Assembly: GCF_000014265.1 (NCBI RefSeq)
Contig: NC_008312.1
Coordinates: 6,630,001 to 6,662,000 of the forward strand
DNA from: Trichodesmium erythraeum IMS101
GTDB lineage: Bacteria; Cyanobacteriota; Cyanobacteriia; Cyanobacteriales; Microcoleaceae
Reading direction: 5' to 3'
DNA length: 32,000 nt
In this document: positions 2 to 23,982 of the stretch, in pieces
Numbering within the stretch: the stretch's first letter is position 1
Layout of the letters: each line of letters starts with the position of its first letter
Position numbers and translations under genes: made by a program
Notes under the pieces: model-generated
Databases searched by the model: none
What the model was told of the DNA's origin: nothing
What the model saw: the letters and a program-made list of their open reading frames with translations, nothing else

Positions 2-622
2 TCGCCTAATGGAGGGGATATTCTGAATACAGGAGATACTTATAATATTACTTGGGATGATAATATTGGGGAGAATGTTCGTATTTATTTGTTTCAGGGT
101 AACAGGTATAAGCAGATGATAAGTAATTCAACTCCTAGTGATGGTAGTTACAGTTGGAAGGTACCGACAAATTTGACTACTGGTGGTAATTATCAAGTTG
201 CTATTCAAAGTGTTGAGAAGGGTAGTCTTTATGATTTTAGTAATAGCAATTTTAGTATTAAAACAGAAGATGTGAGTTCTGATAAATACTATTTTACTTA
301 TTATTATAATGTAGGTGATTCTTATAGTGGTTTTTTGTATGAAAAATCGGGTACATATTCTTCGGATGATATTTTAAGTGTTACTAGTGGTTTTTACCAG
401 ATAGATGATATTGAGAGTGGTGTAGGTAATAAAGATGATATTGGTGATGTTTACATTTCTTCTTACTATGATAGTAATTATACTGGGAATACTTACCAAC
501 CATTATTATCGCGTTATGGATGGCGGTCAGGTGGAAATGGTTTGGGTAGCGAGCGTGACTATTTAGGTTTCCCTAGTTATCAATCTTTTGACTCTAATAA
601 TGAGTTTAATGGTTTAATCTAG
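2..622 (+). CDS. 3' portion of a larger secreted/surface protein: Kre9/KNH-like (Ser-Thr-rich GPI-anchored family type) beta-sandwich module followed by a Y/S/G/D-rich tail
   Basis: Frame 2 is open from the window edge (SPNGGDILNTGDTYNITWDDNIGENVRIYLFQG...), so the TTG at 89 in the ORF track is probably internal. The pattern G..w..G....I.W......V.I.L.....I....DGSYSWKVP..L..G.NYQV.I....GSLYDFS.S.F.I matches that domain family from memory. Stop at 620-622. Confidence 0.6.
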   Translation, partial: SPNGGDILNTGDTYNITWDDNIGENVRIYLFQGNRYKQMISNSTPSDGSYSWKVPTNLTTGGNYQVAIQSVEKGSLYDFSNSNFSIKTEDVSSDKYYFTYYYNVGDSYSGFLYEKSGTYSSDDILSVTSGFYQIDDIESGVGNKDDIGDVYISSYYDSNYTGNTYQPLLSRYGWRSGGNGLGSERDYLGFPSYQSFDSNNEFNGLI

Positions 623-639
623 GGGTTTAAATGTTAAGT

Positions 640-674
640 CCTAGGAGGGGAGCTGACTCTTAATCCCTCCTGGG
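640..674 (+). terminator. Stem-loop just after the stop of the 2-622 CDS (cctaggaggg / ccctcctggg, 9 of 10 bp, 15-nt loop); no clean U-tract
   Basis: Inverted repeat read directly: 640-649 pairs with 665-674. The downstream sequence is only moderately T-rich, so terminator function is uncertain. Confidence 0.3.
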
Positions 675-799
675 ATGGGGATTTGGATATGTTTGTTTCT
701 TGATTTTTTCTTCTGGTAGACTATGGTAGGAAGGTTTTGGTTATGGGGATATGGTTTTTTTATTTGAAAGTCTCTTGAGGCTTTTTTTGTCGGTTTAAT

Positions 800-3268
800 T
801 TTGGTTTTGGCGATCGCTTTCCTATTCTTTTTTTTTGTTGAATAAATAATCATGTGTATGGGCGTGTTTGGCCTTATATTCATAGTTTATCAATTTTTTT
901 CAAAAGTCGCAACCCCTATACCTCTTTTTTTTTTTGAGCTCCACAGGATGAAAAATCTCGGTACAGTAAAGCAGCGCTTTGAATATTAGTTGATCAGCTC
1001 TATACCTCTTTTTTTTTCGGGGCTCCACAGGATGAAAAGTCTGGGTTCTGGGTAAAGTAAGTCAGCACTTTGAATACTAGCCTACCAGCTCTAATTTATT
1101 GATGATTTTTTGATGAGCTTCTTCTTAGACTTGCTTGCTTTGGTTTTCTTCAAGAGCGATCGCTTTCCTATTCTCTTTTTTGTGTTGAATAAATAATCAT
1201 CCGTATAGGCGTGCTTCCCCTTATATTTATAGTTTATCAATTTTTTTCAGAACTTGCAACTCCTATACCCCTTTTTTTCTTGAGCTCCACAGGATGAAAA
1301 ATCTCGGTACAGTAAGGCAGCACTTTGAATATTGGTTTGTCAGCTCTAATTTATTGATGATTTTTGTGATGAGCTTCTTCTTAGACTTGCTTGTCTTGGT
1401 TTTCTTCAAGAGCGATCGCCTTCCTATTCTCTTTTTTTTTGTTGAATAAATAATCATGAGTATGGGCGTAGTTACCCTTATATTCATAGTTTATCAATTT
1501 TTTTCAAAAGTCGCAACCCCTATACCTCTTTTTTTCGGAGCTCCACAGGATGAAAAGTTTGGGTAAAGTAAAGCAGCGCTTTGAATATTAGTTGCAATTC
1601 CCATACCTCTTTTTTTCGGAGCTTTACAGGATGAAAAGTCTGGGTAAAGTAAGTCAGCACTTTGAATACTAGCCTACCAGCTCTAATTTATTGATGATTT
1701 TTGTGATGAGCTTCTTCTTAGACTTGCTTGCTTTGGTTTTCTTCAAGAGCGATCGCTTTCCTATTCTCTTTTTTTTTGTTGAATAAATAATCATGAGTAT
1801 GGGCGTGTTTACCCTTATATTTATAGTATATCAATTTTTTTCAAAAGTCGCAACCCCTATACCTCTTTTTTCGGAGCTCCACAAGATGAAAAATCTCGGT
1901 ACAGTAAAGCAGCACTTTGAATATTAGTTGATCAGCTCTAATTTATTGATGATTTTTTGATGAGCTTCTTCTTTTTTTTTTCAGAGCTCCGCAGGATGAA
2001 AAATCTCAGTACAGTAAAGCAGTACTTTGAATATTAGTTGCAACTTCTACCCCTCTTTTTTTTCGGAGCCCCACAGGATGAAAAATCTGGGTACAGTAAA
2101 GCAGTACTTTGAATATTAGTTGCAACTTCTAGACCTCTTTTTTTTCCGGAGCCCCACAGGATGAAAAATCTGGGTACAGTAAAGCAGCACTTTGAATATT
2201 AGTTGATCAGCTCTAATTTATTGATGATTTTTGTGATGAGCTTCTTCTTAGACTTGCTTGCCTTGCTTTTCTTCAAGAGCGATCGCTTTCCTGCCCTCTT
2301 TTTTTTGTTGAACAAATAATCATGTGTATGGGCGTGCTTCTCCTTATATTCATAGTCTATCAATTTTTTTCAGAAGTTGCAACTCCTATACCTCTTTTTT
2401 TCTCGAGCTCCACAGGATGAAAAATCTCGGTACAGTAAAGCAGTACTTTGAATGCTAGTGGCAACTTCTAGACCTCTTTTTTTTCAGAGCTCCGCAGGAT
2501 GAAAAATCTCAGTACAGTAAAGCAGCACTTTGAATATTAGTTGATCAGCTCTAATTTATTGATGATTTTTGTGATGAGCTTCTTCTTAGACTTGCTTGTC
2601 TTGGTTTTCTTCAAGAGCGATCGCTTTCCTGTCCTCTTTTTTTTGTTGAATAAATAATCATGCATATAGGCGTGCTTCTCCTTATATTCATAGTCTATCA
2701 ATTTTTTTCAGAAGTCGCAACCCCCATACCTCTTTTTTTTTCAGAGCTCCACAGGATGAAAAATCTGGGTAAAGTAAAAAAAAGCAGCACTTTGAATATT
2801 AGTTGCAACCCTAGACCTCTTTTTTTCGGAGCTCCACAGGATGAAAAATCTCGGTAAAGTAAAAAAAAAAGCAGCACTTTGAATATTAGTTTGTCAGCTC
2901 TAATTTATTGATGATTTTTTTGATGAGCTTTTTCTATGACTTGCTTGCTTTGGTTTTCTTCAAGAGCGATCGCTTTCCTGTCCTCTTTTTTTTGTTGAAT
3001 AAATAATCATGCATATAGGCGTGCTTCTCCTTATATTCATAGTCTATCAATTTTTTTCAGAAGTTGCAACTCCTATACCTCTTTTTTTTTCTCGAGCTCC
3101 ACAGGATGAAAAATCTCGGTAAAGTAAGTCAGCACTTTGAATACTAGCCTACCAGCTCTATGATGATTTTTTGATGAGCTTCTTCTTAGACTTGCTTGCT
3201 TTGGTTTTCTTCAAGAGCGATCGCTTTCCTATTCTCTTTTTTTTGTTGAATAAATAATTATGTGTATG
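800..3268. repeat. Compound tandem array A: 8 long modules (~190 bp, each with one HIP1 GCGATCGC site) interleaved with 14 short modules (~75-85 bp, core GAGCTCCACAGGATGAAAAATCT(C/G)GGTA(C/A)AGTAAAGCAGCACTTTGAATATTAG)
   Basis: HIP1 sites lie at 810, 1156, 1412, 1749, 2279, 2617, 2966 and 3217, with spacings of 251-530 bp. The spacing depends on whether 1, 2 or 4 short modules separate them. Short-module cores start near 948, 1024, 1285, 1541, 1621, 1875, 1985, 2068, 2150, 2406, 2487, 2745, 2830 and 3095. An internally deleted long module lies at about 1931-1980. Confidence 0.95.
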
Positions 3269-3324
3269 GGAGAAGAACCCCTAATGCTTCAGCTCTATCA
3301 TCAGCTATTGATCTAACACCGAGA

Positions 3325-3370
3325 AAACCTAAAGCCTAAAACCTAACGCCTAAAACCTAATGCCTATTTT
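3325..3370. repeat. Short tandem repeat, about 3 copies of a 14-nt unit GCCTAAAACCTAA(C/T)
   Basis: Read directly: aaacctaaa gcctaaaacctaac gcctaaaacctaat gcctatttt. Confidence 0.8.
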
Positions 3371-3460
3371 GAAGAACTGATAATTTTGTCATTTTTTTAC
3401 TTAAGGCTTTTGTCATCTGTCTCAGATTTAAGACATTTGACATTTAGTTCTAAAAAATTT

Positions 3461-3477
3461 TTCCCGCGGAGCGGGAA
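3461..3477 (-). terminator. GC-rich hairpin (TTCCCGC-GGA-GCGGGAA) 40 nt downstream of the vWA-FGE stop; on the minus strand it is followed by AAAATTTTTT
   Basis: Perfect 7-bp stem with a 3-nt loop, read directly. It could be an intrinsic terminator, or alternatively a DGR-type target-site hairpin (see findings). Confidence 0.5.
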
Positions 3478-3484
3478 GTAAAGA

Positions 3485-3515
3485 ACAAGAGGGCAAGAGG
3501 GCAAGAGGGCAAAGG
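3485..3515. repeat. Microsatellite-like repeat, about 3.5 copies of GCAAGAGG, between the stop codon and the hairpin
   Basis: acaagagggcaagagggcaagagggcaaagggc read directly. Confidence 0.85.
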
Positions 3516-3516
3516 G

Positions 3517-6105
3517 CTATTCAAAAGTCCTGGGGGGGAAACTCACAAGACGAAAACCAATATAGAAGTTGTCCGCCTCGTCCGAGATACAGTAGGAGCG
3601 GGACGCAGAGCGACACCTCCAAGGATAGATGATCCAGGAGCCGCCACGAAGTACTTTTATACTATTTTTATTACTATTTTTATTACTGTTGATTCTAGCA
3701 CTTCCATCTGTAGGAGCTCCTACATAATTATTATACCTGTCGTCAGCACACCATTCATAAACGTTTCCGTGCATATCATATAAACCAAAAGCATTTGGTG
3801 GAAATTTACCTACAGGAGTTGTTTGGTTTCTATCTTCTCCTTTTGGCCCGTCGCCGTAAGTATCGTTGCCATTATAGTTAGCTAACTCAGGTGTTATGGT
3901 TTCTCCAAAGTAGAATGGTGTACTCGTTCCTGCACGACAAGCATATTCCCATTCGGCTTCACTGGGTAACCTGTACTTTCTTCCTGTTAGTTTTGATAGT
4001 CTTTTACAAAATTCTACTGCTTGGTTCCAGTTTACCTGCTCCACTGGTCTCTGCCATCTATCTATACTTTCGTATGGTTTAAAATATGATGGCTCTGGGT
4101 CTAGGTCTCGTTCTACTTTTATGTCTGTTCGAGTGGCGATCGCTTTCCACTGTCCTTGAGTTACTGGATATTTGCCCATAAAAAAGGAAGGAACAGTTAC
4201 CTGATGTTGGGGCCGTTCATCATCTTCGCTATCCTCTTCATTTTCAGGAGAACCCATGGTAAAAGTACCACCAGGAATATAAACCATTTCTAGCTCTACC
4301 TTTTCTCGAAGACTTTCTTTAAAGTATCGGGCAGAGTTAATATCTTCCTTAATAATTTCTCCTTTTTGGTTGACTTTGGGAGTTTTATACTCATACTTAA
4401 AAACCTCGATATCTGAGGGAAAAAATATTCCACCTGTTTCTAAGTTTTCAACAAAAGCTGTATAGTCTCCCCCTAGTTCTTTTAAGATATTAAATCCAAT
4501 TTCGGCAAAAGCTGGCACAGTTTCTTCCGTATTTGTAGGTAGTTTTAATAAGGCTACAAATTCTTTCATTGACTTCCCAAAATGCTCTTTTAAATATTGA
4601 GAAACTGCATCAAAAACTTTTTGAGAATCACTGACTGGAGCACTTTTTAATAAGATATTTCTAATTTTTTCGTCTACAAATTTATATTCTACTAATTCTG
4701 AGTTTGTGTCAGGAGTAATTTCTTGGGTTGGCTTTAATAAACCTCCTAAAAATACTTCGGCTGTATGAATAGGTAAAGCTTGTGATAAAAGTTTTGCTTG
4801 AATTATTCTGACTACGGGAAGGCATATCATTGGTGCGGCAGATAATAAGCTTGCTAATTTTCTGGCTATAGGAGAAGCGTTCATTCTAAAACGATGAACT
4901 CTTTTTTCTGGGTTTAATTTTTCAATTTTATTTTCTGGTAAATTTTCAGATTTTAGGTGAAGTTCATTTGGCAAAAGAAAGCCTGATACTAATGCTTCGG
5001 GTTTACCTATTAACATTTGACTCCAAACTTTTGCTAGTTCTGGTTGGAGAGTTAATATGGGAATTTTTATTCCTTGTTCTAATAAGAGATTTCTCCATAA
5101 CAAAAATTCTTTAATAATCAAGTTTTTGTTGCTATTTCCTGGTACTAAATTTTGTAGTTGAACTGAGGATCCTATTCTTAAACCTGTTCTTCTCCACATC
5201 CAGTCTGGTAACATTTGTAAAATTGCTAATGGTTGGTATTCTCCCCATTCTCGTAAGGTTGATAGTATTGAACCGTCATGCCAAAAGGGTGCAATACAAT
5301 CACTTACTATTAATATTAAACGACGACCTGTTCTGTCTATTAATTCTTGAGTTTTAGGGAAAGTTTTTTGTTTTCCTATTCCTGCTGTTAGTAAAATTTT
5401 ATCTGAGTTTTTTTGATTTTTTTGAGTGTATTTTTGTTTTTGAATTGCTGCTAATTCTTGAGGGTATAGTCGGCATATTTTTACTTCTCGAAAGATGCCA
5501 TAATTTTTGAGGAGTTGTTTTAATTCTTTGATGGTGTGTTGCCATAAAGTCATTGATTTATATTTGTCTATGACTAAAACTAGGTCTAACCAAGGTTCGG
5601 GTTCTGATTTTAATATTGGAATACAAATACCGCTTTTGGCTGTTTGGTTTACGGTTTCTATTTCGTCTAAGGTTGTTTTTTTTGGGGAGTTTACTTTTTG
5701 CATTAGAGGTTGTAATGCTTTAGCGAATTCTAATGGTTTTGGTATTGAGGGGGCGTCGGGTATTCTTAAGGGTAAGTTTTTTTGAGTGTCTATTTTTTGT
5801 TTGGTGTTATCTCTAATGTCTAAATAAATAAGGGTTGTTTTTTGGGGAGTTTTAGGATGTGGGGTTGATGTTATTTTTTTAGGGGTATGGGGGGGTGAGT
5901 TGGGATGGATGTTTGGTTTTTTCTTATTTTGATTATCAATGTTTGTTTGGGTTTTGGTTGATTTTTTGGTTGGTATTAGTTCTTGGCGTTTTAATGATAA
6001 CCATAATATTTCGGCTATTTCTCTTCCGGTAAATTCTAGGTCTATACCTAAAGTTTTGATTAGTTTTTCAATTTTTTGTTGTTGATTATTATTGGGAGAT
6101 TTCAT
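3517..6105 (-). CDS. Multidomain protein: SAV_2336-like N-terminal helix, P/T/K-rich linker, vWA-like domain with a degenerate MIDAS motif, helical middle region, and C-terminal formylglycine-generating-enzyme (FGE-sulfatase/CLec) domain
   Basis: The N-terminus has REIAEILWLSLKRQ, the ELADALWLA-type motif of vWA partners of MoxR ATPases. The vWA-like core has LDLVLVIDKYKSMTLW, then RRLILIVSDCIAPFWHDGSI, then PLAILQMLPDWMWRRTGL. FGE hallmarks are MVYIPGGTFTMGSP, YRLPSEAEWEYACRAG, GLYDMHGNVYEWCAD and LRGGSW...GFRLV. The MIDAS reads D-K-Y-K-S instead of DxSxS. Confidence 0.85.
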   Translation of the reverse strand: MKSPNNNQQQKIEKLIKTLGIDLEFTGREIAEILWLSLKRQELIPTKKSTKTQTNIDNQNKKKPNIHPNSPPHTPKKITSTPHPKTPQKTTLIYLDIRDNTKQKIDTQKNLPLRIPDAPSIPKPLEFAKALQPLMQKVNSPKKTTLDEIETVNQTAKSGICIPILKSEPEPWLDLVLVIDKYKSMTLWQHTIKELKQLLKNYGIFREVKICRLYPQELAAIQKQKYTQKNQKNSDKILLTAGIGKQKTFPKTQELIDRTGRRLILIVSDCIAPFWHDGSILSTLREWGEYQPLAILQMLPDWMWRRTGLRIGSSVQLQNLVPGNSNKNLIIKEFLLWRNLLLEQGIKIPILTLQPELAKVWSQMLIGKPEALVSGFLLPNELHLKSENLPENKIEKLNPEKRVHRFRMNASPIARKLASLLSAAPMICLPVVRIIQAKLLSQALPIHTAEVFLGGLLKPTQEITPDTNSELVEYKFVDEKIRNILLKSAPVSDSQKVFDAVSQYLKEHFGKSMKEFVALLKLPTNTEETVPAFAEIGFNILKELGGDYTAFVENLETGGIFFPSDIEVFKYEYKTPKVNQKGEIIKEDINSARYFKESLREKVELEMVYIPGGTFTMGSPENEEDSEDDERPQHQVTVPSFFMGKYPVTQGQWKAIATRTDIKVERDLDPEPSYFKPYESIDRWQRPVEQVNWNQAVEFCKRLSKLTGRKYRLPSEAEWEYACRAGTSTPFYFGETITPELANYNGNDTYGDGPKGEDRNQTTPVGKFPPNAFGLYDMHGNVYEWCADDRYNNYVGAPTDGSARINSNKNSNKNSIKVLRGGSWIIYPWRCRSASRSYCISDEADNFYIGFRLVSFPPRTFE

Positions 6106-6343
6106 AAGAAAGAATAAGGGGTAGGATAATTAAATAGTGGAATAATAGTGAAATAATTTTAAGTTTGGTTTAGGTGAGCAGTTTGTTTGGTTTCAGGAGT
6201 ATTTAAGGTAAAAGTAAGAATATTAATATTGCTGTTTAATGTTTATTTTTTTAGTTTTGTTTTGATGGCAATTTTAAGTTTGTTACTATTACTATTATTT
6301 TTATTATTATATGATTTTAGTTATAGTGGCAAATATCATAAAT

Positions 6344-6481
6344 AATGAAAATATTTTAATATACTTTTATGGCTATAAAGTAATAATTTAAATGAATCAA
6401 TATTCTAGTTCTAATGAAAATCCTTTAATATACTTTTATGGCTATAAAGTAATAATTGAAATGAATCAATATTCTAGTTCT
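6344..6481 (+). repeat. Tandem duplication of 2 x 69 bp (66/69 identical) covering the mtnB 5' leader and start codon
   Basis: Copy 1 is 6344-6412 and copy 2 is 6413-6481. Each contains ATGAATCAATATTCTAGTTCT. The codon before the ATG is TAA in copy 1 and GAA in copy 2, so both ATGs (6392 and 6461) are in frame. Confidence 0.9.
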
Positions 6482-7150
6482 GTGGTTACTAAGGAAAAAC
6501 AATGGTATCAAAGTGATACTGATAAGTTGGTCTGCGAGCTCTGTCGACACTTCTACAACTTGGGCTGGGCTAGTGGTACTGGTGGGGGCATTTCCATCCG
6601 TGACGAAGATGGGATCCACATTACTCCATCGGGGGTGCAGAAGGAACGGATATCCCCGGATGATGTGTTTCTCCTGGATGCTAGGGCACTTGATGGTGCA
6701 AAAGTTATACGGCCAGCGGCTAACTCTAACTTACGTCTGAGCGAGTGTACCCCTCTATTTATGGCTGCTTACCGACTGCGGAAGGCTGGGGCGGTTCTTC
6801 ACAGCCATTCGATATGGGCTATGTTGGCTGGACGTCTGTGCTCCCCTAATGGTGAGCCTGGGGTTTTTCGTACCCGCAACCTAGAGATGCAAAAGGGTTT
6901 GCGTGGACGTGGCTGTTTTGAAACAGTTGAGGTCCCTATTATCTCGAATACTACCCGTGAGTCCCAGCTTACAGATAGCCTGACGGCGGCTATTGAGGAT
7001 AACCCGGATGTGGATGCTGTGATCGTTGCTGGTCATGGGGTCTATGTCTGGGGTGAAAATTGGGCCCATGCGAAGACTCAGGCTGAATGCTATGACTATT
7101 TGTTCCGTGCGGCAGTAGAGGGGTATCGCTTAGGTTTACCTATCCATTAG
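6392..7150 (+). CDS. mtnB: Methylthioribulose-1-phosphate dehydratase (class II aldolase/adducin fold, MtnB/APIP type); alternative start at 6461
   Basis: Close resemblance, from memory, to eukaryote-type MtnB/APIP: LCRHFYNLGWASGTGGGISIR, ITPSGVQKERI, SECTPLFMAAY, AGAVLHSHS, GHGVYVWGENW..AKTQAECYDYLF. The start is ambiguous because of the 69-bp duplication. Confidence 0.85.
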   Translation: MNQYSSSNENPLIYFYGYKVIIEMNQYSSSVVTKEKQWYQSDTDKLVCELCRHFYNLGWASGTGGGISIRDEDGIHITPSGVQKERISPDDVFLLDARALDGAKVIRPAANSNLRLSECTPLFMAAYRLRKAGAVLHSHSIWAMLAGRLCSPNGEPGVFRTRNLEMQKGLRGRGCFETVEVPIISNTTRESQLTDSLTAAIEDNPDVDAVIVAGHGVYVWGENWAHAKTQAECYDYLFRAAVEGYRLGLPIH

Positions 7151-7164
7151 AGGAGGGAGCTGGG

Positions 7165-10100
7165 TCGGCTAATGGTGCTTAACAAAGGAGGCCAAGGGTA
7201 AAAATAACTGTAGGTTGGGTTGAAGCACGAAACCCAACAGACAGTGGTTGGCAGATAATAACTTTAGGTTGGCTAATGGTTTTATGAAGTAGGTGTGATG
7301 TTTCTGTTGGTTTTGATTTTTTTTGCCTAACTTAGGTTTTATGGTTTTTTGGTGGAATAATTTTTGGGCGGAATAATTTTTTGGTGGAATAACTGTAGGT
7401 TTGGTTGAGGTACAAAACCCAGGAAAAGCTGGTTGGCAGATAATAACTTTAGGTTGGCTAATGGTTTTATGAAGTAGGTGTGATGTTTCTGTTGGGTTTG
7501 ATTTTTTTTTGCCTAACTTAGGTTTTATGGTTTTTTGGTGGAATAATTTTTTAGCGGAATAATTTTTTGGTGGAATAACTGTAGGTTTGGTTGAGGTACA
7601 AAACCCAGGAAAAGCTGGTTGGCAGATAATAGCTTTAGGTTGGCTAATGGTTTTATGAAGTAGGTGTGATGTTTCTGTTGGGTTTGATTTTTTTTTGCCT
7701 AACCTAGGTTTTATGATTTTTTGGTGGAATAATTTTTTGGTTGAATAATTTTTTGGTGGAATAACTGTAGGTTTGCTTCAGGTACAAAACCCAAGACAAG
7801 GTGGTTGGCAGATAATAACTTTAGGTTGGCTAATGGTTTTATGAAATAGATGTGATGTTTCTGTTGGTTTTGATTTTTTTTGCCTAACCTAGGTTTTATG
7901 ATTTTTTGGTGGAATAATTTTTTGGTGGAATAATTTTTTGGTGGAATAATTTTTTGGTGGAATAACTGTAGGTTTGCTTCAGGTACAAAACCCAAGACAA
8001 GGTGGTTGGCAGATAATAGCTTTAGGTTGGCTAATGGTTTTATGAAATAGATGTGATGTTTCTGTTGGGTTTGATTTTTTTTTGCCTAACTTAGGTTTTA
8101 TGATTTTTTGGTGGAATAATTTTTGGGCGGAATAATTTTTTGGTGGAATAACTGTAGGTTTGGCTGAGGTACAAAACCCAAGACAAGGTGGTTGGCAGAT
8201 AATAACTTTAGGTTGGCTAATGGTTTTATGAAATAGATGTGATGTTTCTGTTGGTTTTGATTTTTTTTGCCTAACCTAGGTTTTATGATTTTTTGGTGGA
8301 ATAATTTTTGGGCGGAATAATTTTTTGGTGGAATAACTGTAGGTTTGGTTGAGGTACAAAACCCAGGAAAAGCTGGTTGGCAGATAATAGCTTTAGGTTG
8401 GCTAATGGTTTTATGAAGTAGGTGTGATACTTCTGTTGGTTTTGATTTTTTTTGCCTAACCTAGGTTTTATGATTTTTTGGTGGAATAATTTTTGGGCGG
8501 AATAATTTTTTGGTGGAATAACTGTAGGTTTGGTTGAGGTACAAAACCCAAGACAAGGTGGTTGGCAGATAATAACTTTAGGTTGGCTAATGGTTTTATG
8601 AAGTAGGTGTGATGCTTCTGTTGGTTTTGATTTTTTTTGCCTAACCTAGGTTTTATGATTTTTTGGTGGAATAATTTTTGGGCGGAATAATTTTGTGGAA
8701 TAACTGTAGGTTTGGTTGAGGTACAAAACCCAAGACAAGGTGGTTGGCAGATAATAACTTTAGGTTGGCTAATGGTTTTATGAAGTAGGTGTGATGCTTC
8801 TGTTGGTTTTGATTTTTTTTGCCTAACCTAGGTTTTATGATTTTTTGGTGGAATAATTTTTGGGCGGAATAATTTTGTGGAATAACTGTAGGTTTGGTTG
8901 AGGTACAAAACCCAAGACAAGGTGGTTGGCAGATAATAACTTTAGGTTGGCTAATAGTTTTATGAAATAGGTGTGATGTTTCTGTTGGGTTTGATTTTTT
9001 TTTGCCTAACCTAGGTTTTATGATTTTTTGGTGGAATAATTTTTTAGCGGAATAATTTTTTGGTGGAATAATTTTTTTGTGGAATAACTGTAGGTTTGGT
9101 TGAGGTATAAAACCCAGGAAAAGCTGGTTGGCAGATAATAGCTTTAGGTTGGCTAATGGTTTTATGAAGTAGGTGTGATACTTCTGTTGGTTTTGATTTT
9201 TTTTGCCTAACCTAGGTTTTATGATTTTTTGGTGGAATAATTTTTTAGCGGAATAATTTTTTAGCGGAATAATTTTTGGGTGGAATAACTGTAGGTTTGG
9301 CTGAGGTACAAAACCCAGAAAAAGCTGGTTGGCAGATAATAACTTTAGGTTGGCTAATAGTTTTATGAAATAGATGTGATGCTTCTGTTGGTTTTGATTT
9401 TTTTTGCCTAACTTAGGTTTTATGATTTTTTGGTGGAATAATTTTTTGGTGGAATAATTTTTTGGTGGAATAACTGTAGGTTTGGCTGAGGTACAAAACC
9501 CAAGACAAGGTGGTTGGCAGATAATAGCTTTAGGTTGGCTAATGGTTTTATGAAATAGATGTGATGTTTCTGTTGGTTTTGATTTTTTTTGCCTAACCTA
9601 GGTTTTATAATTTTTTGGTGGAATAATTTTTTGGTGGAATAATTTTTTGGTGGAATAACTGTAGGTTTGCTTCAGGTACAAAACCCAAGACAAGGTGGTT
9701 GGCAGATAATAGCTTTAGGTTGGCTAATGGTTTTATGAAATAGATGTGATGTTTCTGTTGGGTTTGATTTTTTTTTGCCTAACTTAGGTTTTATGATTTT
9801 TTGGTGGAATAATTTTTGGGCGGAATAATTTTTTGGTGGAATAACTGTAGGTTTGGCTGAGGTACAAAACCCAAGACAAGGTGGTTGGCAGATAATAACT
9901 TTAGGTTGGCTAATGGTTTTATGAAATAGATGTGATGTTTCTGTTGGGTTTGATTTTTTTTTGCCTAACCTAGGTTTTATGATTTTTTAGCGGAATAATT
10001 TTTTGGTGGAATAATTTTTTGGTGGAATAACTGTAGGTTTGCTTCAGGTACAAAACCCAAGACAAGGTGGTTGGCAGATAATAACTTTAGGTTGGCTAAT

Positions 10101-10531
10101 GGTTTTATGAAATAGATGTGATGTTTCTGTTGGTTTTGATTTTTTTTGCCTAACCTAGGTTTTATGATTTTTTGGTGGAATAATTTTTTGGCGGAATAAT
10201 TTTGTGGAATAACTGTAGGTTTGGTTGAGGTACAAAACCCAGAAAAATCTGGTTGGCAGATAATAACTTTACGTTGGCTAATGGTTTTATGAAATAGGTG
10301 TGATGCTTCTGTTGGGTTTGATTTTTTTGCCTAACCTAGGTGTTATGATTTTTTGGTGGAATAATTTTTTGGTGGAATAATTTTTTGGTGGAATAACTGT
10401 AGGTTTGCTTCAGGTACAAAACCCAGGAAAAGATGGTTGGCAGATAATAACTTTAGGTTGGCTAATGGTTTTATGAAATAGATGTGATGCTTCTGTTGGT
10501 TTTGATTTTTTTTGCCTAACTTAGGTTTTAT
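7165..10531. repeat. Tandem array B: about 18 units of 182-203 bp filling the whole gap between the convergent 3' ends of mtnB and the MoxR-like gene; each unit contains 3-4 copies of a nested 16-nt sub-repeat GGTGGAATAATTTTTT
   Basis: The landmark CTGTAGG recurs at 7208, 7393, 7579, 7765, 7966, 8152, 8338, 8522, 8704, 8886, 9089, 9289, 9474, 9659, 9845, 10031, 10213 and 10398. The ~200-bp units carry a fourth 16-mer. A two-unit block starting at 7966 appears identical by eye for more than 300 nt to one starting at 9659 (offset 1693). Confidence 0.95.
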
Positions 10532-10563
10532 AAGTTTTTAGAGATTTATAAATTTTCAAAATT

Positions 10564-11658
10564 TTATTGACTTAAATTTTTAAACAAAATTTCCTTAAGA
10601 GACTCAATATTATTATCATCTTGAGGACTATTTGACTGAGTTAATATATGAATTGTATTGAGTAACTGATCTGTTGCTCTGTCAAATGCTTCACCTTCTT
10701 CTTGTTTGGGCAAAAATTCTTTAATTAATTCCCCAATATAGTCCTGATTTTGATTATACAATTCATCTCCGAAATGAGCTTGAACAATACTTTTTAAAGC
10801 TTCCTCTTTTGGGTCTGGCATTGTCACTCTTAAACAACGTCGTTTAAATGCGGGAGGAAAATCTCTTTCTCCATTACTTGTCATTACAATAATAGGAAAA
10901 GCTGCACATTTTACTTTTCCAGTTTTGAGGGTTACTTTGTCTTCATCTTGTGTCCAAACTGTAAATTGTTGTGGAGATTCTTGTGAAAATTCTTGTGAAG
11001 ATTCTGCTGATTTTCTAGATTTACTTCTACGCATTAATTCGGGAATAATAAATTCTCCTTCCTCAAAAATATTGAGTAAATCATTGGGTAAATTAATATC
11101 ACTTTTATCAACTTCATCTATTAATAAAACCCGAGGAAATTGAGAAGGTAAAAATGCTGTACCTAAGGCACCTAATGTAATATATTCTCCAATGTGTTGT
11201 TCTTTTTTTAATTGAGCATCTTGTAACCTGGCAATAGCATCATAACGATATAGTCCATCTTGTAAAGCAGACCTTGCTGTAATTGACCAAGATAATACAG
11301 TTCCCAAACCTAATTCATAAGCAATGGCATAAGCAAGGGATGTTTTGCCAGAACCTGGTTTTCCAGTTATTAATAAAGGTCTTCTCAAATAAATTGCTGC
11401 GTTAACACTGTTAATTACATCTTTTGCTTCTTTTTGTTGTTGAGGAAGTCGAAAGTTTTTACCTCTTTCTAATCCTTTTTTTTGTTGTTTTGCTAATTTT
11501 CTTAATTCTAACCATCTACTGTCAATTCCTTTTTCATTTACTTTAATATCTGTTGTTTCCCCAAATTTACGCCAAGGAGGAGGCTCTATATTTAAGAGTT
11601 TTTTTTCAACTCCTTTTTCTTTAATTCCATTCCCTTGAAATAAATGCCAATGGCTCAT
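10564..11658 (-). CDS. MoxR-like AAA+ ATPase (the type that partners vWA proteins)
   Basis: Walker A is GKPGSGKT (codons at 11341-11364, verified on the DNA). Walker B is VLLIDEVD. The sensor region has FKRRCLRV. The N-terminus has a PPPWRKF motif, and LRRPLLITG precedes the P-loop, as I recall for MoxR ATPases of vWA-MoxR conflict systems. Confidence 0.85.
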   Translation of the reverse strand: MSHWHLFQGNGIKEKGVEKKLLNIEPPPWRKFGETTDIKVNEKGIDSRWLELRKLAKQQKKGLERGKNFRLPQQQKEAKDVINSVNAAIYLRRPLLITGKPGSGKTSLAYAIAYELGLGTVLSWSITARSALQDGLYRYDAIARLQDAQLKKEQHIGEYITLGALGTAFLPSQFPRVLLIDEVDKSDINLPNDLLNIFEEGEFIIPELMRRSKSRKSAESSQEFSQESPQQFTVWTQDEDKVTLKTGKVKCAAFPIIVMTSNGERDFPPAFKRRCLRVTMPDPKEEALKSIVQAHFGDELYNQNQDYIGELIKEFLPKQEEGEAFDRATDQLLNTIHILTQSNSPQDDNNIESLKEILFKNLSQ

Positions 11659-11666
11659 TAATTATG

Positions 11667-11672
11667 CTCCTT
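11667..11672 (-). promoter_or_regulatory. Shine-Dalgarno AAGGAG 8 nt upstream of the MoxR-like ATG, inside the 29-nt gap after the 570-aa gene
   Basis: Plus-strand ctcctt at 11667-11672. The position implies co-transcription or coupling with the upstream gene. Confidence 0.55.
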
Positions 11673-11687
11673 TTTTTTTATTTTATT

Positions 11688-13400
11688 TTACCCAAAAGTG
11701 TAGGCATCGTCTTCTTCAAATCTTGATAAAATTCGGTAAGGGTTATCACATAAAAATCCTAAGCCATATCCTAGTTTTTCTTCATTGTTATCATCAATAT
11801 AAGCTTCTTCTCGTAATTTTTTTATGGAATTTAAAAGACTGGTTAAACTTTTAATATCTTGCAGTGTTAAGATTTGCAGAAAGTTTGTTTTTAACTTTTC
11901 AGGAGTATATTTAAGGTTAATACTCCATAATGCAATGGGAATTCCAGCAATAATAATTGCTTTCATAATCTCTTTGATTTCTTGAATATTTTTTAAAGGT
12001 GAAATAATGTTTATTCCTATTTTTTGATTGTCTCTTAAACGTGCTTCTAGTATTTTCCATTTTTCATAGCGACTATGATGTTCAAATTTATTTTCAATTA
12101 TTTCTGAAGTTAATGGTGACTGGGATATAAAAAAATCATTTACTTCTTGCCAGTTATTTTCTAATCTCAGTAAATATTCACGATTATTTTGATAAGTTTC
12201 AAATCTTTCCAAAATTCTAAAAGTTAATGGGTGCTCACAACAAAGCTTTCTACTTTCTCCTGCAAATAGTGTTGAATTTTTTATTGGTAAAGGGATAGCT
12301 TCCATGGGCTTTAAAAAATATTTGATAGGCAAGAATAATTCAATAATGATTGACGGCTCAAACCTAATATTACTATTTCGAGAACGATAATGTTGTAATT
12401 TCCAATAACTTTTCTGAATAAATTTTTTAAGACAGTTTCCTATTTTTTTGAAGTTTTTTGCACATCTAACAGCTTGTGTTTGCTCCTGAATATAAATAGG
12501 TTTTTGTTTCAGAATTTTCTTACTATGATCTTTTTCTAGGACTAACTCACCTTGCAATAGTAAATCAGAACCAGCATCTTCTAAACTTATTAATAAGTAA
12601 GGCTGAATTTTTTCTGTGGGCAAGAATTTTGATAGATTTTTATTTTTTTCTTGAGTCTTTAATAGGGTATCTTTTTTCTGGAGTCGAGCAGTAAATTTTG
12701 AAAGCCATATTTTTAAATTAGATCTACTTTCCTTTTGTTTTTGAGTCTCTAATTGAATATTTAGTTGATGAGAAACTTCTGAAACCCATGTTTTAAATTC
12801 ATTGGGAATGGTAGATTTTGTTGGAAGATAATTAGGGTTTGATAATATTGTCTGAAGTGATATATCTATTTGTTCATATGGCATTCTGCTTAAATAATCA
12901 ACAAATTCTAAAACTACGGGAATTTCTCTTGAACTTTGCTCTCGTTTTTTAATTAAATTATCTTTTAAAGTATCTTGAGTTTCTTCAGCTTCTAAGGATT
13001 TTAAGTTAATTAATCTTGGATCAACTTCCACAATTTCTTTTGGTTGAAAGGTTTCCTGAAAAGCTAAATCTAAATAAGTTGGATGAATCTGAGAGAGTAA
13101 TTTATATAACTTTTCCCATTGTTTTTCGGTAATGTAGAAAAGTTGATAAGTTATGTTTTTAATTGGCAAATTATGGGGATTTTGATCATTAGCTCCCCAA
13201 ACTAAGTCTAATAGTTTATTTTGACTTTCAGCCCATTCAATTAATGCCAGAATAACATTGTCAAGAGGGTCTCGTTTAACAATCTCCTCAAGATTTTTTT
13301 CTAGATTTAATCTAAACATTATTCTAAGTTGATCATAGCTTCGATAGCCATCTTCTAAAGCTTTAAATAGATATTTCCTTTCAGATTTAGACAAGTTCAT
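11688..13400 (-). CDS. 570-aa protein: N-terminal effector-associated-domain (EAD)-like helical module (residues ~1-80) plus a large K/E/L/I-rich domain without a P-loop; candidate VMAP-like (vWA-MoxR-associated) scaffold
   Basis: Residues 1-77 align without gaps to the N-terminus of the protease at 14783-15853, with 35/77 identical by my own count. No GxxxxGK[ST] motif is present. The gene lies directly upstream of the MoxR-like gene. The VMAP assignment rests on context only. Confidence 0.6.
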   Translation of the reverse strand: MNLSKSERKYLFKALEDGYRSYDQLRIMFRLNLEKNLEEIVKRDPLDNVILALIEWAESQNKLLDLVWGANDQNPHNLPIKNITYQLFYITEKQWEKLYKLLSQIHPTYLDLAFQETFQPKEIVEVDPRLINLKSLEAEETQDTLKDNLIKKREQSSREIPVVLEFVDYLSRMPYEQIDISLQTILSNPNYLPTKSTIPNEFKTWVSEVSHQLNIQLETQKQKESRSNLKIWLSKFTARLQKKDTLLKTQEKNKNLSKFLPTEKIQPYLLISLEDAGSDLLLQGELVLEKDHSKKILKQKPIYIQEQTQAVRCAKNFKKIGNCLKKFIQKSYWKLQHYRSRNSNIRFEPSIIIELFLPIKYFLKPMEAIPLPIKNSTLFAGESRKLCCEHPLTFRILERFETYQNNREYLLRLENNWQEVNDFFISQSPLTSEIIENKFEHHSRYEKWKILEARLRDNQKIGINIISPLKNIQEIKEIMKAIIIAGIPIALWSINLKYTPEKLKTNFLQILTLQDIKSLTSLLNSIKKLREEAYIDDNNEEKLGYGLGFLCDNPYRILSRFEEDDAYTFG

Positions 13401-14340
13401 TATTGTGATTGTTTAATTTAATCAAGTTACATTTTTTCTAAAAATATTAGAGCTATAAATTTGGATTAATTTGCTTTAAAGTTTTAGCTATAAATAGCCT
13501 GCAAATAATTAATATAAATATTTTTTTAGAAATAGCGATCGCTCAATAGATATTTGATTTTAAATTGAGATTGGTTGATTATCATTGTGCTTATTTAATT
13601 AATTTAATTTACGTTGTATTCAAATAAATTATAGGCATAATTTTGTATTAATTTGCCTTAATATTTTATCTATAAATATCCTGAAAATAACTAATATAGA
13701 TATTTTTTTAGGAGTAGCGATCGCTAAATATATATTTGATTTTAAATTGAGATTGGTTGATTATCATTGTGCTTATTCAATTAATTTAATTTACGTTATA
13801 TTCAAATAAATTATAGGCATAATTTTGTATTAATTTGCCTTAATATTTTAGCTATAAAGATCCTGAAAATAACTAATATAGATATTTTTTTAGGGGTAGC
13901 GATCGCTCAATATATATTTGATTTTAAATTTAAATTAGTTGATTATCATTGTGCTTATTTAATTAATTTAATTTACGTTGTATTCAAATAAATTATAGGC
14001 AAATTTTGTATTAATTTGCTTTAAAATTTTAGCTATAAATATCCTGAAAATAACTAATATAGATATTTTTTTAGGAGTAGAGATCGCTCAATATATATTT
14101 GATTTTAAATTTAAATTAGTTGATTATCATTGTGCTTATTTAATTAATTTAATTTACGTTGTATTCAAATAAATTATAGGCAAATTTTGTATTAATTTGC
14201 TTTAAAATTTTAGCTATAAATATCCTGAAAATAACTAATATAGATTTTTTTTTAGGAGTAGCGATCGCTCAATATATATTTGATTTTAAATTTAAATTAG
14301 TTGATTATTATTGTGCTTATTCAATTAACTTAATTTACGT
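13398..14340. repeat. Tandem array C: about 5 units of 181-182 bp, an amplification of the entire spacer between the membrane-protein stop and the 570-aa gene start
   Basis: HIP1 or its degenerate form occurs at 13535, 13717, 13899, 14080 (GAGATCGC) and 14261. The junction motif TTTACGTT occurs at 13611, 13793, 13975, 14156 and 14337, with a diverged copy at 13429. The last unit overlaps the final codons of the 14325-14747 gene. The first unit overlaps the ATG at 13398-13400. Confidence 0.95.
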
Positions 14341-14747
14341 TTTTCTAGAGGAATTAGAGGAATAACTACTGTATAAAGCACCATTAATATTGAGCCATAA
14401 ATAGGCTGATACCAACTAATAGAAATAAATGGTTTTCCACCAATAGCGATCGCCCAAACTATAAATGCTCCTACGGAAATAATCCCTTGTTTAATAGTAG
14501 GTTTCTTCTTTGAACTGACTGGTAATAAACAAATATAAGCGAAAGTTAAGAACAAACAAAAAATAAATATTCCCCATAAAATACTATTTTCAGGAACATT
14601 ATTGTTTCCTTCTACCATAGTTTTAATAGTAATCCATACTCCTACTATTTCTGAAGGAATATATTTCACTATCTTGTCGAAATAATTATCTATATCAGAT
14701 TTTGTTTCTGATGCTTGTAGTTCAGTTTCAATAATAGAACGGTTCAT
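14325..14747 (-). CDS. Small integral membrane protein (140 aa; soluble ~30-aa N-terminus, then 3-4 predicted transmembrane helices)
   Basis: Hydrophobic stretches are ILWGIFIFCLFLTFAYICLLPV, GIISVGAFIVWAIAIGG and IYGSILMVLYTVVIPLIPL. The start is 35 nt after the protease stop. I recognise no family. Confidence 0.65.
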   Translation of the reverse strand: MNRSIIETELQASETKSDIDNYFDKIVKYIPSEIVGVWITIKTMVEGNNNVPENSILWGIFIFCLFLTFAYICLLPVSSKKKPTIKQGIISVGAFIVWAIAIGGKPFISISWYQPIYGSILMVLYTVVIPLIPLEKRKLS

Positions 14748-14782: not shown

Positions 14783-15853
14783 TTAGTTAAGTTGAATTGA
14801 TTTTTGTTCTAAATCATGATGAATAGAACTAAACAAAATACCTTCACGAATAGTGCCAAAATATTTAGAACGTTGAGCATGATGTAAAGCTACTAATTCT
14901 CCATTTTCATTAAAACAGGGTGAACCACTGGAGCCTCCTGCTGTTCTATTAATATACTGAACTAATCCACTATGAGGATAAACTCCTGTAATTCCATCAC
15001 AAGTAATAGAAAGTTTCATTGATTCTCCATTGGGATGTTGTAGAATATTAATACTATCAGCTTCAGAGAGGAAAATATGAGGCTGCCATTTAGCAGGTTT
15101 AATCTTTGTATCTTCTGAATCTAAAGCTTGACTAAAAGTTTTTTCAAGCTGTAGTAAAATATAATCAAGTTCTCCTACAGGACTAGAGGAAATAATAGGT
15201 TTTTCAGAATCTAATAAAAAGGATTTTGATGTGCTTTCTCTACTGTTATTTAAACTAAAACAGCCAAAACTAATACGAATATTCTTGGCATTTAACTCAA
15301 GATTATTATTGTTATTTTGTTTAAGCACATGATAATTAGTTAAAACATATTTTGAAGCAATTAATACCCCTGTTGCTGTAATATTTAGATTTGGTACATC
15401 AAGCCGACAAACTGATTTAGCTTGCTCAATAATTTTCTGCAAAAATCCTACATCATACCAATCTGGTTGTTTTTTAAATAATCCTTGTAATTCAATTTGG
15501 TCAGTTTTTCCATGCCAATCAATATTCGGACCAAAATCTCTAATGGGAGTCAAATCATAATCTAAAATTGCTCTTTTCTGAAAGTCTTTTGAGATTGTGT
15601 GAAAAAATTTTTTTAACTTTTGATTATCAGGATTTTGTTCATAAGCTCCTATAATTAAAGACTTTAATTTTCCCCGAGCTTCTGCTGAGTCAATTAAATT
15701 AAAAACGACTGTTTCTAAATCACCTTTCCCGGCAAATCTTTCTAAATTTTCTTCTAACTTAAATCTAACCATTCTTTGAAGCTTGCCATAGTCTCTATAA
15801 GAATCTAATAAAGCTTCAAATAGTTCTTCAGTTTCAAAACCTGATAATGTCAT
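14783..15853 (-). CDS. EAD-like N-terminal domain fused to a trypsin-like (S1/Trypsin_2-type) serine protease
   Basis: The catalytic triad is recognisable: H175 (LTNYHVL), D230 (GELDYILLQL) and S309 (TAGGSSGSPCF; Ser codon at 14927-14929, verified on the DNA). The N-terminal 77 residues are paralogous to the N-terminus of the 570-aa protein. Confidence 0.85.
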   Translation of the reverse strand: MTLSGFETEELFEALLDSYRDYGKLQRMVRFKLEENLERFAGKGDLETVVFNLIDSAEARGKLKSLIIGAYEQNPDNQKLKKFFHTISKDFQKRAILDYDLTPIRDFGPNIDWHGKTDQIELQGLFKKQPDWYDVGFLQKIIEQAKSVCRLDVPNLNITATGVLIASKYVLTNYHVLKQNNNNNLELNAKNIRISFGCFSLNNSRESTSKSFLLDSEKPIISSSPVGELDYILLQLEKTFSQALDSEDTKIKPAKWQPHIFLSEADSINILQHPNGESMKLSITCDGITGVYPHSGLVQYINRTAGGSSGSPCFNENGELVALHHAQRSKYFGTIREGILFSSIHHDLEQKSIQLN

Positions 15854-18008: not shown

Positions 18009-18042
18009 TACCTCTTTCTATAAATAAAATTATGTTGGTATT

Positions 18043-18277
18043 TAGGGCTTGCTGATTAACTTTTAAAGCATTGACTGATATTGGCAAGTGCTTTTTTTAC
18101 CTGGACAAAAGTGTTAGCTTTTGGGTTGCTCAAGATCGTGTATGTTAGTATTTTGGGCAAACACCAGATAGAAGAATCAAAAAAAGGGCAATTCTGGGTG
18201 CTACTTCCTAATTAATTCCCATTTATTCTGAGTGATGATTTCTATCTTCACTTGTCAAGATTTTTCAGCAAACCCTA
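18043..18277. mobile_element. MITE-like element copy 2 (~235 bp), inverted relative to copy 1, starting 35 nt upstream of the gdhA start codon
   Basis: The termini are TAGGGCTTGCT (18043-18053) and AGCAAACCCTA (18267-18277). The inner 34 nt match copy 1 at 29/34, including a perfect 18-mer TTAATCAGCAAGCCCTAA (16632-16649 against the reverse complement of 18042-18059). The outer ~21 nt also match. The interior is strongly diverged. Confidence 0.6.
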
Positions 18278-22848: not shown

Positions 22849-23982
22849 ATAGATAGTAGTTGAATACTAACTCTGGGTTATCCAAAAAATTATAATTTTT
22901 CCCAGATTCAACTGTAGTTTTAATCTTGAGTTATAATAAGTCAAATAAAAGGAAGAAAGAAAACAAGCAAAATTCGCATTTTCAATTTTTTTGAGAGTAT
23001 CTTATTTAAGAATATAAGTGATAAATTGACATAATTTGGTCAATAATTTATAAAGTTTTGATAGAGGCTATAATTGCTACTAAAATCTGAATCTAGATAA
23101 TCCTATCTCAAGATTAAACGGTTTAGCCTGCTTGAAGACAGGAAGCAAGAGGTAGTTGTGGCAGAGGAAATGGATTTGGAGTTATTTTTTTTATAAGTTC
23201 AATGGATGTGCATAACATTGAGGATTGGTATATATTCTAAAATATTAGTCTCTGAAAATATCTTTTTTCCTAGCTTACTAAGTTTCAATTATAATCCGAT
23301 TTATACCCCAGAAAGTATTTCTCTTTGTTAGCCTTATTGTAAACCCATTTTAATACCTATTGTAAGATTTTTTTCTACTCAAGAGATTGTTGCAAAACTG
23401 CCATATCATACCTCATAATTTTCCCAATGAAATTATTTTAAGATTCTAGTTTTCAAGGTTGGGAAAGAAAACAAAGTTTATTGTTAATACAAATAAATCA
23501 AGTTCCACCCACCTGATTAATTTTAATATACAGCGCTTTCCTTTGTTATAAGGTCCACCCACTCAGGCAAGATGCCCGGAATACATAATTTTCACTATTT
23601 ACTTTGTATTTTATATGGCAGAAATATCTTGTAAAAATGTACATCTTGATGTTGCCTATAATCTCATATTAATTATGAGTAAAAAATGAAATATGATAAC
23701 AAATCTGATGGAATAAAAGCTGATTATATATTCTGTATATCAGACTAATTTAAATACATTAATTATAACTTTTTTTTACTTCAGTTATTAAATAATTAAT
23801 ACAAAAGGAAGAAATTTTTGGCACGAAAAACTAAGTTAATGCTAATTCTTATAAAGCCTAAGTTAAAAAGTTACTGAGAATAGTATTATCTCACCCTGTA
23901 ATCAGTCTATAATAATCAGATTTAGTATGATATCTTGCCTTGTATGGTCGGAGATACTGATAACCGATAACTGATAAATAAA

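Follow-up and report, generated by a model that had tools for sequence, protein, structure and literature searches.

Three large tandem repeat arrays, A, B and C, lie among the genes of a VMAP/MoxR ternary conflict system within a 15-kb island of the Trichodesmium erythraeum IMS101 chromosome. Our reading, to which we assign a probability of roughly 70%, is that these arrays are young, lineage-specific tandem amplifications of local DNA that arose in situ, and that they are not components of the conflict system. The main evidence is a comparison with orthologous loci, together with the internal anatomy of the arrays. The region analysed is a 32,000-nt stretch of NC_008312.1, referred to below as the window, and positions are those of the window unless another locus is named.

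Organization of the locus

The gene set of the island is that of a known conflict system, with an FGE-domain sensor whose hypervariability is of the type produced by diversity-generating retroelements (DGRs). The genes of the system and those that border the arrays are the following.

89..622, + strand: 3′ end of a surface-protein gene (PPC/Kre9_KNH/fn3, Pfam); the full gene, encoding >1292 aa, is present in the metagenome-assembled genome (MAG) MAG_R01 (locus L013)
3517..6105, − strand: FGE gene, 862 aa, with a SAV_2336 N-terminal domain (putative vWA-type component) and FGE/CLec (Pfam, NCBIfam); the last gene of the ancestral operon
6392..7150, + strand: mtnB, methylthioribulose-1-phosphate dehydratase (NCBIfam TIGR03328, 190.6 bits against a cut-off of 137)
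10564..11658, − strand: MoxR-like AAA+ ATPase gene (Pfam AAA and AAA_5; homologues are named MoxR family ATPase)
11688..13400, − strand: EAD1 and VMAP-C gene, 570 aa (PF20028 VMAP-C at 1.5e-15, PF19955 EAD1)
14325..14747, − strand: 140-aa membrane protein gene, whose 3′ end is the template of most of the array C unit
14783..15853, − strand: EAD1-trypsin effector gene, 356 aa (Pfam EAD1 and Trypsin_2; synteny); the first gene of the ancestral operon

The repeats, which have no strand, were located with Tandem Repeats Finder (TRF) and BLAST.

~810..3270: array A, in which S subunits of 82 bp and L units of ~175 bp are combined in a composite tandem arrangement at two levels (TRF, unit BLAST)
6343..6481: 69-bp x 2 tandem duplication spanning the mtnB start and duplicating MNQYSSS (TRF, translation of the open reading frame [ORF]); also present in MAG_R01
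7203..10539: array B, 17.8 copies of 185 bp with 91% matches; a period of 371 bp is the alternative (TRF)
13366..13452: degenerate copy of the array C unit, overlapping the VMAP gene start (BLAST)
13455..14341: array C, 182 bp x 4.9 copies, 94% matches, five units (TRF)

VMAP ternary conflict systems were defined by Kaur et al. 2020 (PMC7159879), and the assignment of this one is given by a MoxR-type AAA+ ATPase together with a VMAP-C protein that carries EAD1 and is paired with an EAD1-trypsin effector (Pfam). The putative vWA component of the 862-aa FGE protein has no match to Pfam vWA; the NCBIfam model SAV_2336_NTERM matches at 405 bits, and there is a motif resembling a metal-ion-dependent adhesion site, DKYKSM (DQSQSM in the Crocosphaera orthologue). 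All of the system genes are intact, with dN/dS values of 0.17–0.42 between T. erythraeum and the thiebautii-like clade described below, and the conflict system is thus not decaying. No tRNAs were found in the window.

A preliminary description of this DNA had reported the three arrays and named the genes beside them. Its array coordinates agree with those from TRF and BLAST to within a few tens of bases, and its gene identities with the ORF, Pfam and NCBIfam calls. It had also placed arrays A and B between convergent genes, which is correct with the qualification that one partner in each pair lies outside the system: array B sits between the 3′ ends of the housekeeping gene mtnB and the MoxR gene, and array A between those of the PPC/Kre9 surface-protein gene and the FGE gene.

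Orthologous loci

In Crocosphaera sp. XPORK-15E, whose MoxR is 74% identical, the genes lie on one strand in the order EAD1-trypsin, 140-aa membrane protein, EAD1-VMAP-C, MoxR and a 1019-aa FGE protein, with spacers of 64, 8, 23 and 6 bp and with bAvd and reverse transcriptase (RT) genes directly after the FGE gene; TRF finds no arrays in this locus. The thiebautii-like clade is represented by two loci, L022 (a TARA scaffold) and L033 (MAG_R02), whose MoxR proteins are 87% identical to that of IMS101 and belong to a 57-member cluster drawn from St* MAGs and MAG_R02. Here the island occupies the same chromosomal neighbourhood, with genes for saccharopine dehydrogenase, a methyltransferase, ferrochelatase, DUF4126 and GDH. 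The spacer between the membrane-protein and VMAP genes is 17 bp long, without array C, and after the MoxR gene a spacer of ~470 bp leads to the start of a co-directional FGE gene, without array B and without mtnB (both L022 and L033). Okeania sp. KiyG1 has an identical gene order with enlarged spacers, and no arrays are present at its B or C junctions. By parsimony arrays B and C and the mtnB insertion, which are missing in sister and outgroup loci, are derived in the T. erythraeum clade, and array A is probably derived there too.

Other features of these loci deserve mention. Okeania sp. KiyG1 (locus L032) contains a different array, of 117 bp x 3.8 with 98% matches, which lies where a PIN_2 gene ends, downstream of the FGE gene (L032 13282–13725), and, upstream of the trypsin gene, long arrays of the heptamer TCAAAAG (L032 1554–1828 and 4246–5822). 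The VMAP gene of Okeania falls into two ORFs that overlap, a possible sign of a frameshift or pseudogene. The thiebautii-like loci have a GC-rich segment of ~200 bp upstream of the FGE start (L033 ~11380–11560, L022 ~4450–4600) that has no counterpart in IMS101; a search of this segment against Rfam gave only a chance FMN match (E=0.9), and the segment could be a structured 5′ leader.

Derivation of arrays C and B

The unit of array C, read in the sense of the genes, is colinear with the L022 junction between the membrane-protein and VMAP genes: about 140 bp of the 3′ end of the membrane-protein gene, the stop codon, the 17-bp spacer and about 30 bp of the 5′ end of the VMAP gene (alignment score 151; blastn 69.5% over 197 bp, E=5e-15). 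Array C is thus a tandem duplication across a gene junction, whose inner copies have lost coding capacity and become AT-richer.

Array B is made up of 18 consecutive units, of which 17 are full (182–202 bp) and one measures 144 bp; each ends in 2.6–4 copies of the 16-mer ATTTTTTGGTGGAATA. Positions 1–68 and 99–146 of the unit match two colinear pieces of the MoxR–FGE spacer of L022, where they are single-copy, and the unit is a derivative of the ancestral MoxR–FGE spacer. The edge unit, B01, retains in canonical form a hairpin motif with an 8-bp stem, GTTGGGTT-GAAGCACGA-AACCCAAC. The motif (TAGGTTGGGTTGAAGCACGAAACCCAAC) lies at 7211–7238, has variants at two places in the L022 spacer (4230–4260 and 4385–4415) and is degenerate in the interior units of the array. 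It resembles a short palindromic element that is, we presume, common in cyanobacterial spacers.

The identity matrix of the B units has a clear structure. The edge unit is the most divergent (88–93% identical to the others), the interior units combine a small number of variant blocks in mosaic fashion, and there are two pairs of identical units, B08=B09 and B05=B14, the latter nine units apart; overall the units differ by 3–12%, with consistent variant patterns. A divergent edge unit, a mosaic interior and identical non-adjacent units together form the pattern to be expected of unequal crossover, conversion and block duplication. We also note a very strong strand asymmetry over 7001–10000, with GC skew values between +0.46 and +0.53; G and T are abundant on the plus strand, C and A on the MoxR-sense strand.

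The mtnB gene beside array B is inserted in inverted orientation between the MoxR and FGE genes, only in the T. erythraeum clade, and has repeats on either side, namely array B and the 69-bp duplication. The duplication gives mtnB two in-frame MNQYSSS starts, such that a 252-aa ORF compares with a 229-aa gene call in MAG_R01. It represents the same junction-duplication process as the arrays, at an earlier stage.

Array A and the 3′ flank of the FGE gene

Array A is more complex. TRF delimits it to 1000–3262, with periods of 82, 251, 256 and 338 bp, and unit BLAST widens it to ~810–3270, with 14 S matches and 9 L matches when partial ones are included; a cut-off of >=80% of unit length leaves 13 S and 6 L. 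The modules are ordered l-SS-L-S-L-SS-L-S-l-sSS-L-SS-L-SS-L-S-l, and this order is not the same in IMS101 and MAG_R01, whose genomes are ~97% identical.

No relatives of array A were detected outside the array itself, whether in genome, metagenome and viral contigs, in plasmids and phages (searched with the higher-order unit), in the L022 locus or in the Crocosphaera DGR cassette. Against genome contigs the array-A core gave only two chance matches, in unrelated bacteria; its own locus was unmatched too, so that this null is weak for the rest of the genome. The possibility that array A is a relic of the DGR cassette found 3′ of the Crocosphaera FGE gene was rejected, as neither tblastx nor blastn finds any similarity. 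Conserved small ORFs were likewise rejected: Lys-rich ORFs of 74–80 aa are present (641–883 and 1263–1487), and they do not recur in most units.

Several small elements lie between the array and the FGE gene.

3461..3477, − strand: GC-rich hairpin TTCCCGCTCCGCGGGAA with a T-run after it, ahead of array A and at a distance of 40 bp downstream from the FGE stop (terminator scan)

This hairpin is likely a terminator, or alternatively a DGR-associated hairpin. On one side of it, six copies of the heptamer AAAACCT/AAAGCCT, similar to the short tandemly repeated repetitive (STRR) sequences of cyanobacteria, occupy 3324–3366, and on the other, four copies of the octamer CAAGAGGG occupy 3486–3517 and end at the FGE stop codon. 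At the opposite end of array A, the adjoining surface-protein gene, as seen in MAG_R01, contains in-frame tandem repeats of 285 bp and 351 bp (L013 15450–16629 and 17906–18680), repeats of Ig-like Kre9/PPC domains, so that coding tandem repeats border a non-coding array.

Variation within the T. erythraeum clade and age of the arrays

MAG_R01, which is 96–97% identical to IMS101, carries all three arrays, and arrays B and C are also found in St5_bin8, ALOHA_ZT_67, GCA_018457135.1 and TARA contigs. Many of the short-read contigs break inside B and C. Where the gap between MoxR and mtnB is closed in a short-read assembly it measures 225, 410, ~595 or 781 bp, corresponding to 0.8, 1.8, 2.8 or 3.8 B units, and the array C gap similarly corresponds to about 1, 2, 3 or 4.9 units. 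A series of n + 0.8 units is the signature of de Bruijn graph collapse, and copy numbers from short reads therefore cannot be trusted; these gaps do show that multi-copy arrays exist in natural populations.

The dS between the T. erythraeum and thiebautii-like clades is ~0.3, and that between IMS101 and MAG_R01 is ~0.03–0.06. Between the latter two genomes the unique spacers are 95.4–97.6% identical and coding sequences 96.7–99.1%, and long blocks that include C units are ~96–97% identical. Blocks with C units are thus no more identical than unique spacers, and there is no sign of special constraint. The dS values, together with the 3–12% divergence among units, fit an origin of the arrays between the two splits.

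A proposed history of the island

A simple explanation for these observations can be put forward. The ancestor would have had the EAD1-trypsin, membrane-protein, EAD1-VMAP, MoxR and vWA/FGE sensor genes in one compact co-directional operon. Once the thiebautii-like clade had branched off, and while IMS101 and MAG_R01 still shared an ancestor, a 182-bp segment over the membrane/VMAP junction would have been duplicated in tandem, its inner copies would have decayed, and the decayed segment would then have been re-amplified to give array C. About 185 bp of the MoxR–FGE spacer would have been amplified to 18 copies beside the inverted mtnB insertion, giving array B, and a composite unit would have been amplified downstream of the FGE gene to give array A. 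We infer that the amplification proceeded by replication slippage or by unequal recombination between copies, supplemented by conversion and block duplication. The main consequence would be the breaking of the operon into three separately transcribed pieces.

Placement of the arrays

When units are compared across arrays by BLAST at E<=1e-3, all matches fall within the array of origin, and A, B and C are mutually unrelated, as the preliminary description had proposed. It was also right that the housekeeping half of the window is without large arrays: at 15.9–32 kb TRF finds only an 11-bp microrepeat and the direct-repeat search finds no repeats of >=40 bp, nor does the contig of a near-identical strain (L028), which reaches the equivalent of window position ~40.7 kb, contain any arrays. 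Counting only spacers of >=100 bp, three of the four in the island contain arrays as compared with none of the eight housekeeping spacers, or none of ~15 when the near-identical contig is counted.

Calculated by hand, the probability of finding all three spacers with arrays among the four of the island is C(4,3)/C(12,3) = 0.018, a value that is suggestive only, because the island boundary and the window were picked after the arrays had been seen and a single locus is considered. The suggestion that the placement is non-random accordingly has a nominal p of ~0.02 behind it, from a post hoc test at one locus. Of the contrast that had been drawn between a conflict island and a housekeeping region, the confinement of the arrays to the island stands; however, the contrast is less clean than portrayed, because the housekeeping gene mtnB lies within the island and borders array B.

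Search for a dedicated product or a mobile origin

The array units were examined for signs of a product of their own. Folding of the units on both strands yields structures no more stable than those of dinucleotide shuffles (z = +0.25 to +1.1), and Rfam gives nothing at the gathering threshold and, at E<=1, a single snoRNA match, within the VMAP gene and ascribed to chance; a structured non-coding RNA (ncRNA) family was rejected on these two results. No ORF of >=60 aa recurs across units. Promoter-like and terminator-like sites over 1–16.5 kb are not commoner than in shuffled sequence, with 52 promoter-like sites in the region against 62.3 in the shuffles. Four of the array C units carry a − strand promoter-like site, ATGATA-17-TAAAAT, which matches at 9/12 positions and coincides with a decayed start codon.

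There are no copies of array units elsewhere in the window by BLAST or direct-repeat search. Unit cores have no matches in viral contigs, and in metagenome contigs, searched with B and A, there are no real matches but only single chance ones. Two familiar classes of repeat were considered and dismissed. A CRISPR array was rejected because the units are contiguous, 82–185 bp long and without unique spacers. A miniature inverted-repeat transposable element or dispersed mobile repeat was rejected because copies outside the arrays were found neither in the window nor in the collections searched, the B01 hairpin motif alone having relatives, the two in the L022 spacer.

The variable region of the FGE protein

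The C-terminus of the FGE protein (3550–3670, − strand) has a distinctive pattern of variation. Orthologues are 94–98% identical overall, and substitutions at many discrete sites set their last ~45 aa apart, in a stretch bounded by the invariant motifs RGGSW, CRS and GFRLV. The dN/dS of the gene between IMS101 and MAG_R01 is 1.07, a value attributable to this hypervariable C-terminus. The pattern is as expected for a DGR variable region and is a signature of one. Cyanobacterial DGRs commonly diversify the vWA-CLec/FGE component of VMAP systems (Doré et al. 2024, PMC10907252), and Pfreundt et al. 2014 (PMC4143802) report 12 such FGE-domain DGR targets in IMS101. Both the DGR template repeat and the RT of this genome lie outside the window, at about 2.63 Mb, and the RT is pseudogenised.

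Relationship to other repeat arrays and conflict systems

The IMS101 genome is only 60% coding (PMC4143802), and 'large, repeat rich genomes' are given as a feature of the genus (PMC9950141). The most abundant RNA of IMS101 comes from a >6-kb array next to the gene Tery_0080, in which each of the seven units includes a duplicate of that gene's 3′ part (Pfreundt et al. 2014, PMC4143802); its ~260-nt RNAs account for 44.7% of primary reads (PMC4143802). The arrays described here share with it the genome, the multi-kb head-to-tail intergenic arrangement, a unit that is unique to the locus and, in array C, a 3′ fragment of an adjacent gene within the unit. Head-to-tail units of about 100 bp or more fill the spacers, unit sequence is confined to the locus (in a genome scan that covered A only), and duplicated fragments of an adjacent gene or spacer are found in C and B, with no match for A. 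We conclude that the arrays are new examples of a phenomenon, non-coding expansion, already known in this genome. There are differences, in that the Tery_0080 units are 736–973 bp long as opposed to 82–185 bp, and that array adjoins transposases and is not inside a conflict operon. The Tery_0080 array also has a mapped unit-internal transcription start site (TSS) and a hugely abundant RNA.

The gene set compares closely with described VMAP systems (PMC7159879, PMC10907252) in its MoxR AAA+ ATPase, its EAD1 plus VMAP-C and EAD1-trypsin proteins and its large FGE/CLec protein with a hypervariable C-terminus. Those systems, like the Crocosphaera orthologue, are compact operons, and the published definition includes no repeat arrays; the IMS101 operon, in contrast, is broken up by two arrays and by a housekeeping gene in inverted orientation. 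Repeated DNA beside defence-type genes is also seen with CRISPR and with cyanobacterial STRR and long tandemly repeated repetitive (LTRR) sequences, and the heptamer run near the FGE stop codon is of STRR type. The arrays themselves differ from both in having contiguous units that are not short heptamers, with no unique spacers and no cas genes, and in that the unit sequences of B and C derive from neighbouring genes and spacers. They are most reminiscent of satellite arrays evolving by unequal crossover, with diverged edge units, a mosaic or identical interior, an organization that varies between close relatives and a higher-order periodicity (371 bp in B, 251–338 bp in A); unlike satellites, they are small (1–3.4 kb) and occur inside an operon of a bacterial chromosome.

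Alternative explanations

The preliminary description had offered two interpretations: a functional tie between the arrays and the system, or an island that is a hotspot for slippage amplification. The second is supported, since the thiebautii-like loci have in single copy the sequence from which B and C are built, the units are mosaic and array organization varies among close genomes. The first is not supported: the orthologous system of Crocosphaera is compact and without arrays, B and C are absent from the thiebautii-like loci where the genes are intact and under selection, and there is no RNA-structure or Rfam signal. From these same observations we infer that the arrays lack a dedicated function.

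Some observations weigh against the view that the arrays are lineage-specific amplifications without a role in the system. They persist in several lineages of the T. erythraeum clade (IMS101, GCA_018457135.1, MAG_R01, St5_bin8 and ALOHA_ZT_67). No source sequence was found for array A. The sole Trichodesmium array studied by experiment, that of Tery_0080, is strongly transcribed from a unit-internal TSS, and by analogy transcription of A, B or C is plausible. Lastly, the 15-kb island holds all three arrays and the ~25 kb that follow hold none, which pure neutrality does not explain.

A more specific form of functional explanation is that these are ncRNA gene arrays, each unit having its own promoter and yielding an abundant small RNA, or that array C provides promoters or pseudo-5′ ends that tune VMAP–MoxR expression, copy number then serving to switch dosage or phase. 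We consider this unlikely, while recognizing that the Tery_0080 array is a precedent in the same genome and that the split of the operon means that VMAP–MoxR and FGE now need promoters of their own, which must lie in or near array C and the 286-bp mtnB–FGE spacer. The promoter-like site in four C units counts in favour of such a role, but it is a partial match on a decayed start codon, and sites of this kind are rarer in the region than in shuffled sequence. Apparent copy number does vary among assemblies, but the differences come from short-read assemblies with the collapse signature noted above. Neither a structure signal nor an Rfam match was obtained, C-unit blocks are no better conserved between IMS101 and MAG_R01 than unique spacers, and the orthologous systems are intact and under selection without arrays. 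An adaptive version, for which we see only a slim chance, holds that splitting of the operon by expandable arrays is itself beneficial: unit-internal promoters would give rise to abundant RNAs, or the arrays would act as insulators of variable copy number, and slippage would tune or phase-vary expression of a potentially suicidal VMAP–MoxR–trypsin system among the cells of a colony.

The island might instead be a specific structural hotspot, through DGR or retroelement activity, through strong diversifying selection coupled with frequent recombination between alleles, or through the rearrangement that brought in mtnB. The clustering of the arrays, the DGR-type hypervariability and dN/dS of the FGE gene, the bAvd and RT genes directly downstream in the Crocosphaera orthologue and the repeats on both sides of the mtnB insertion all point in this direction. 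However, no unit resembles any part of a DGR (tblastx against the Crocosphaera cassette finds no match), the IMS101 RT is elsewhere in the genome and pseudogenised, arrays C and B lie 8–10 kb from the FGE variable region, and at a single locus a hotspot is indistinguishable from chance clustering; we regard this explanation as quite improbable. That the repeats were spuriously expanded during assembly of the reference is hardly credible. The 18 B units are indeed seen only in the finished IMS101 chromosome, compared with 0.8–3.8 in short-read assemblies, but independent assemblies hold at least 2–4 B units, 2–5 C units and an array A of ~2.1 kb, many contigs break exactly within B and C, and the units differ from one another in consistent variant patterns. 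In situ amplification of local DNA thus remains our preferred reading.

Implications and other observations

On this preferred reading the locus is a dated example of how T. erythraeum gained its large non-coding fraction, by duplication of junctions and spacers, decay and re-amplification, and it illustrates that such duplication can occur inside an operon kept under purifying selection. It also carries a warning, in that repeat arrays beside defence genes need not be parts of a defence system; here the sister-clade comparison marks them as add-ons. If the arrays are transcribed like that of Tery_0080, this ecologically important nitrogen fixer would have additional abundant RNAs derived from repeats.

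The EAD1-trypsin gene has a dN/dS of 1.42 between IMS101 and MAG_R01, calculated from few substitutions (dN 0.013, dS 0.009), and of 0.30 between the clades; the higher value may reflect recent diversifying change or noise. In the housekeeping half of the window, the spacers at 18009–20214 and 22849–23982 cannot be aligned between IMS101 and MAG_R02 (L033), with flanking genes that are 85–90% identical, and both spacers are much longer in IMS101 (2206 vs 944 bp and 1134 vs 454 bp, respectively). Non-coding DNA therefore turns over and expands quickly in these genomes even where there are no tandem arrays.

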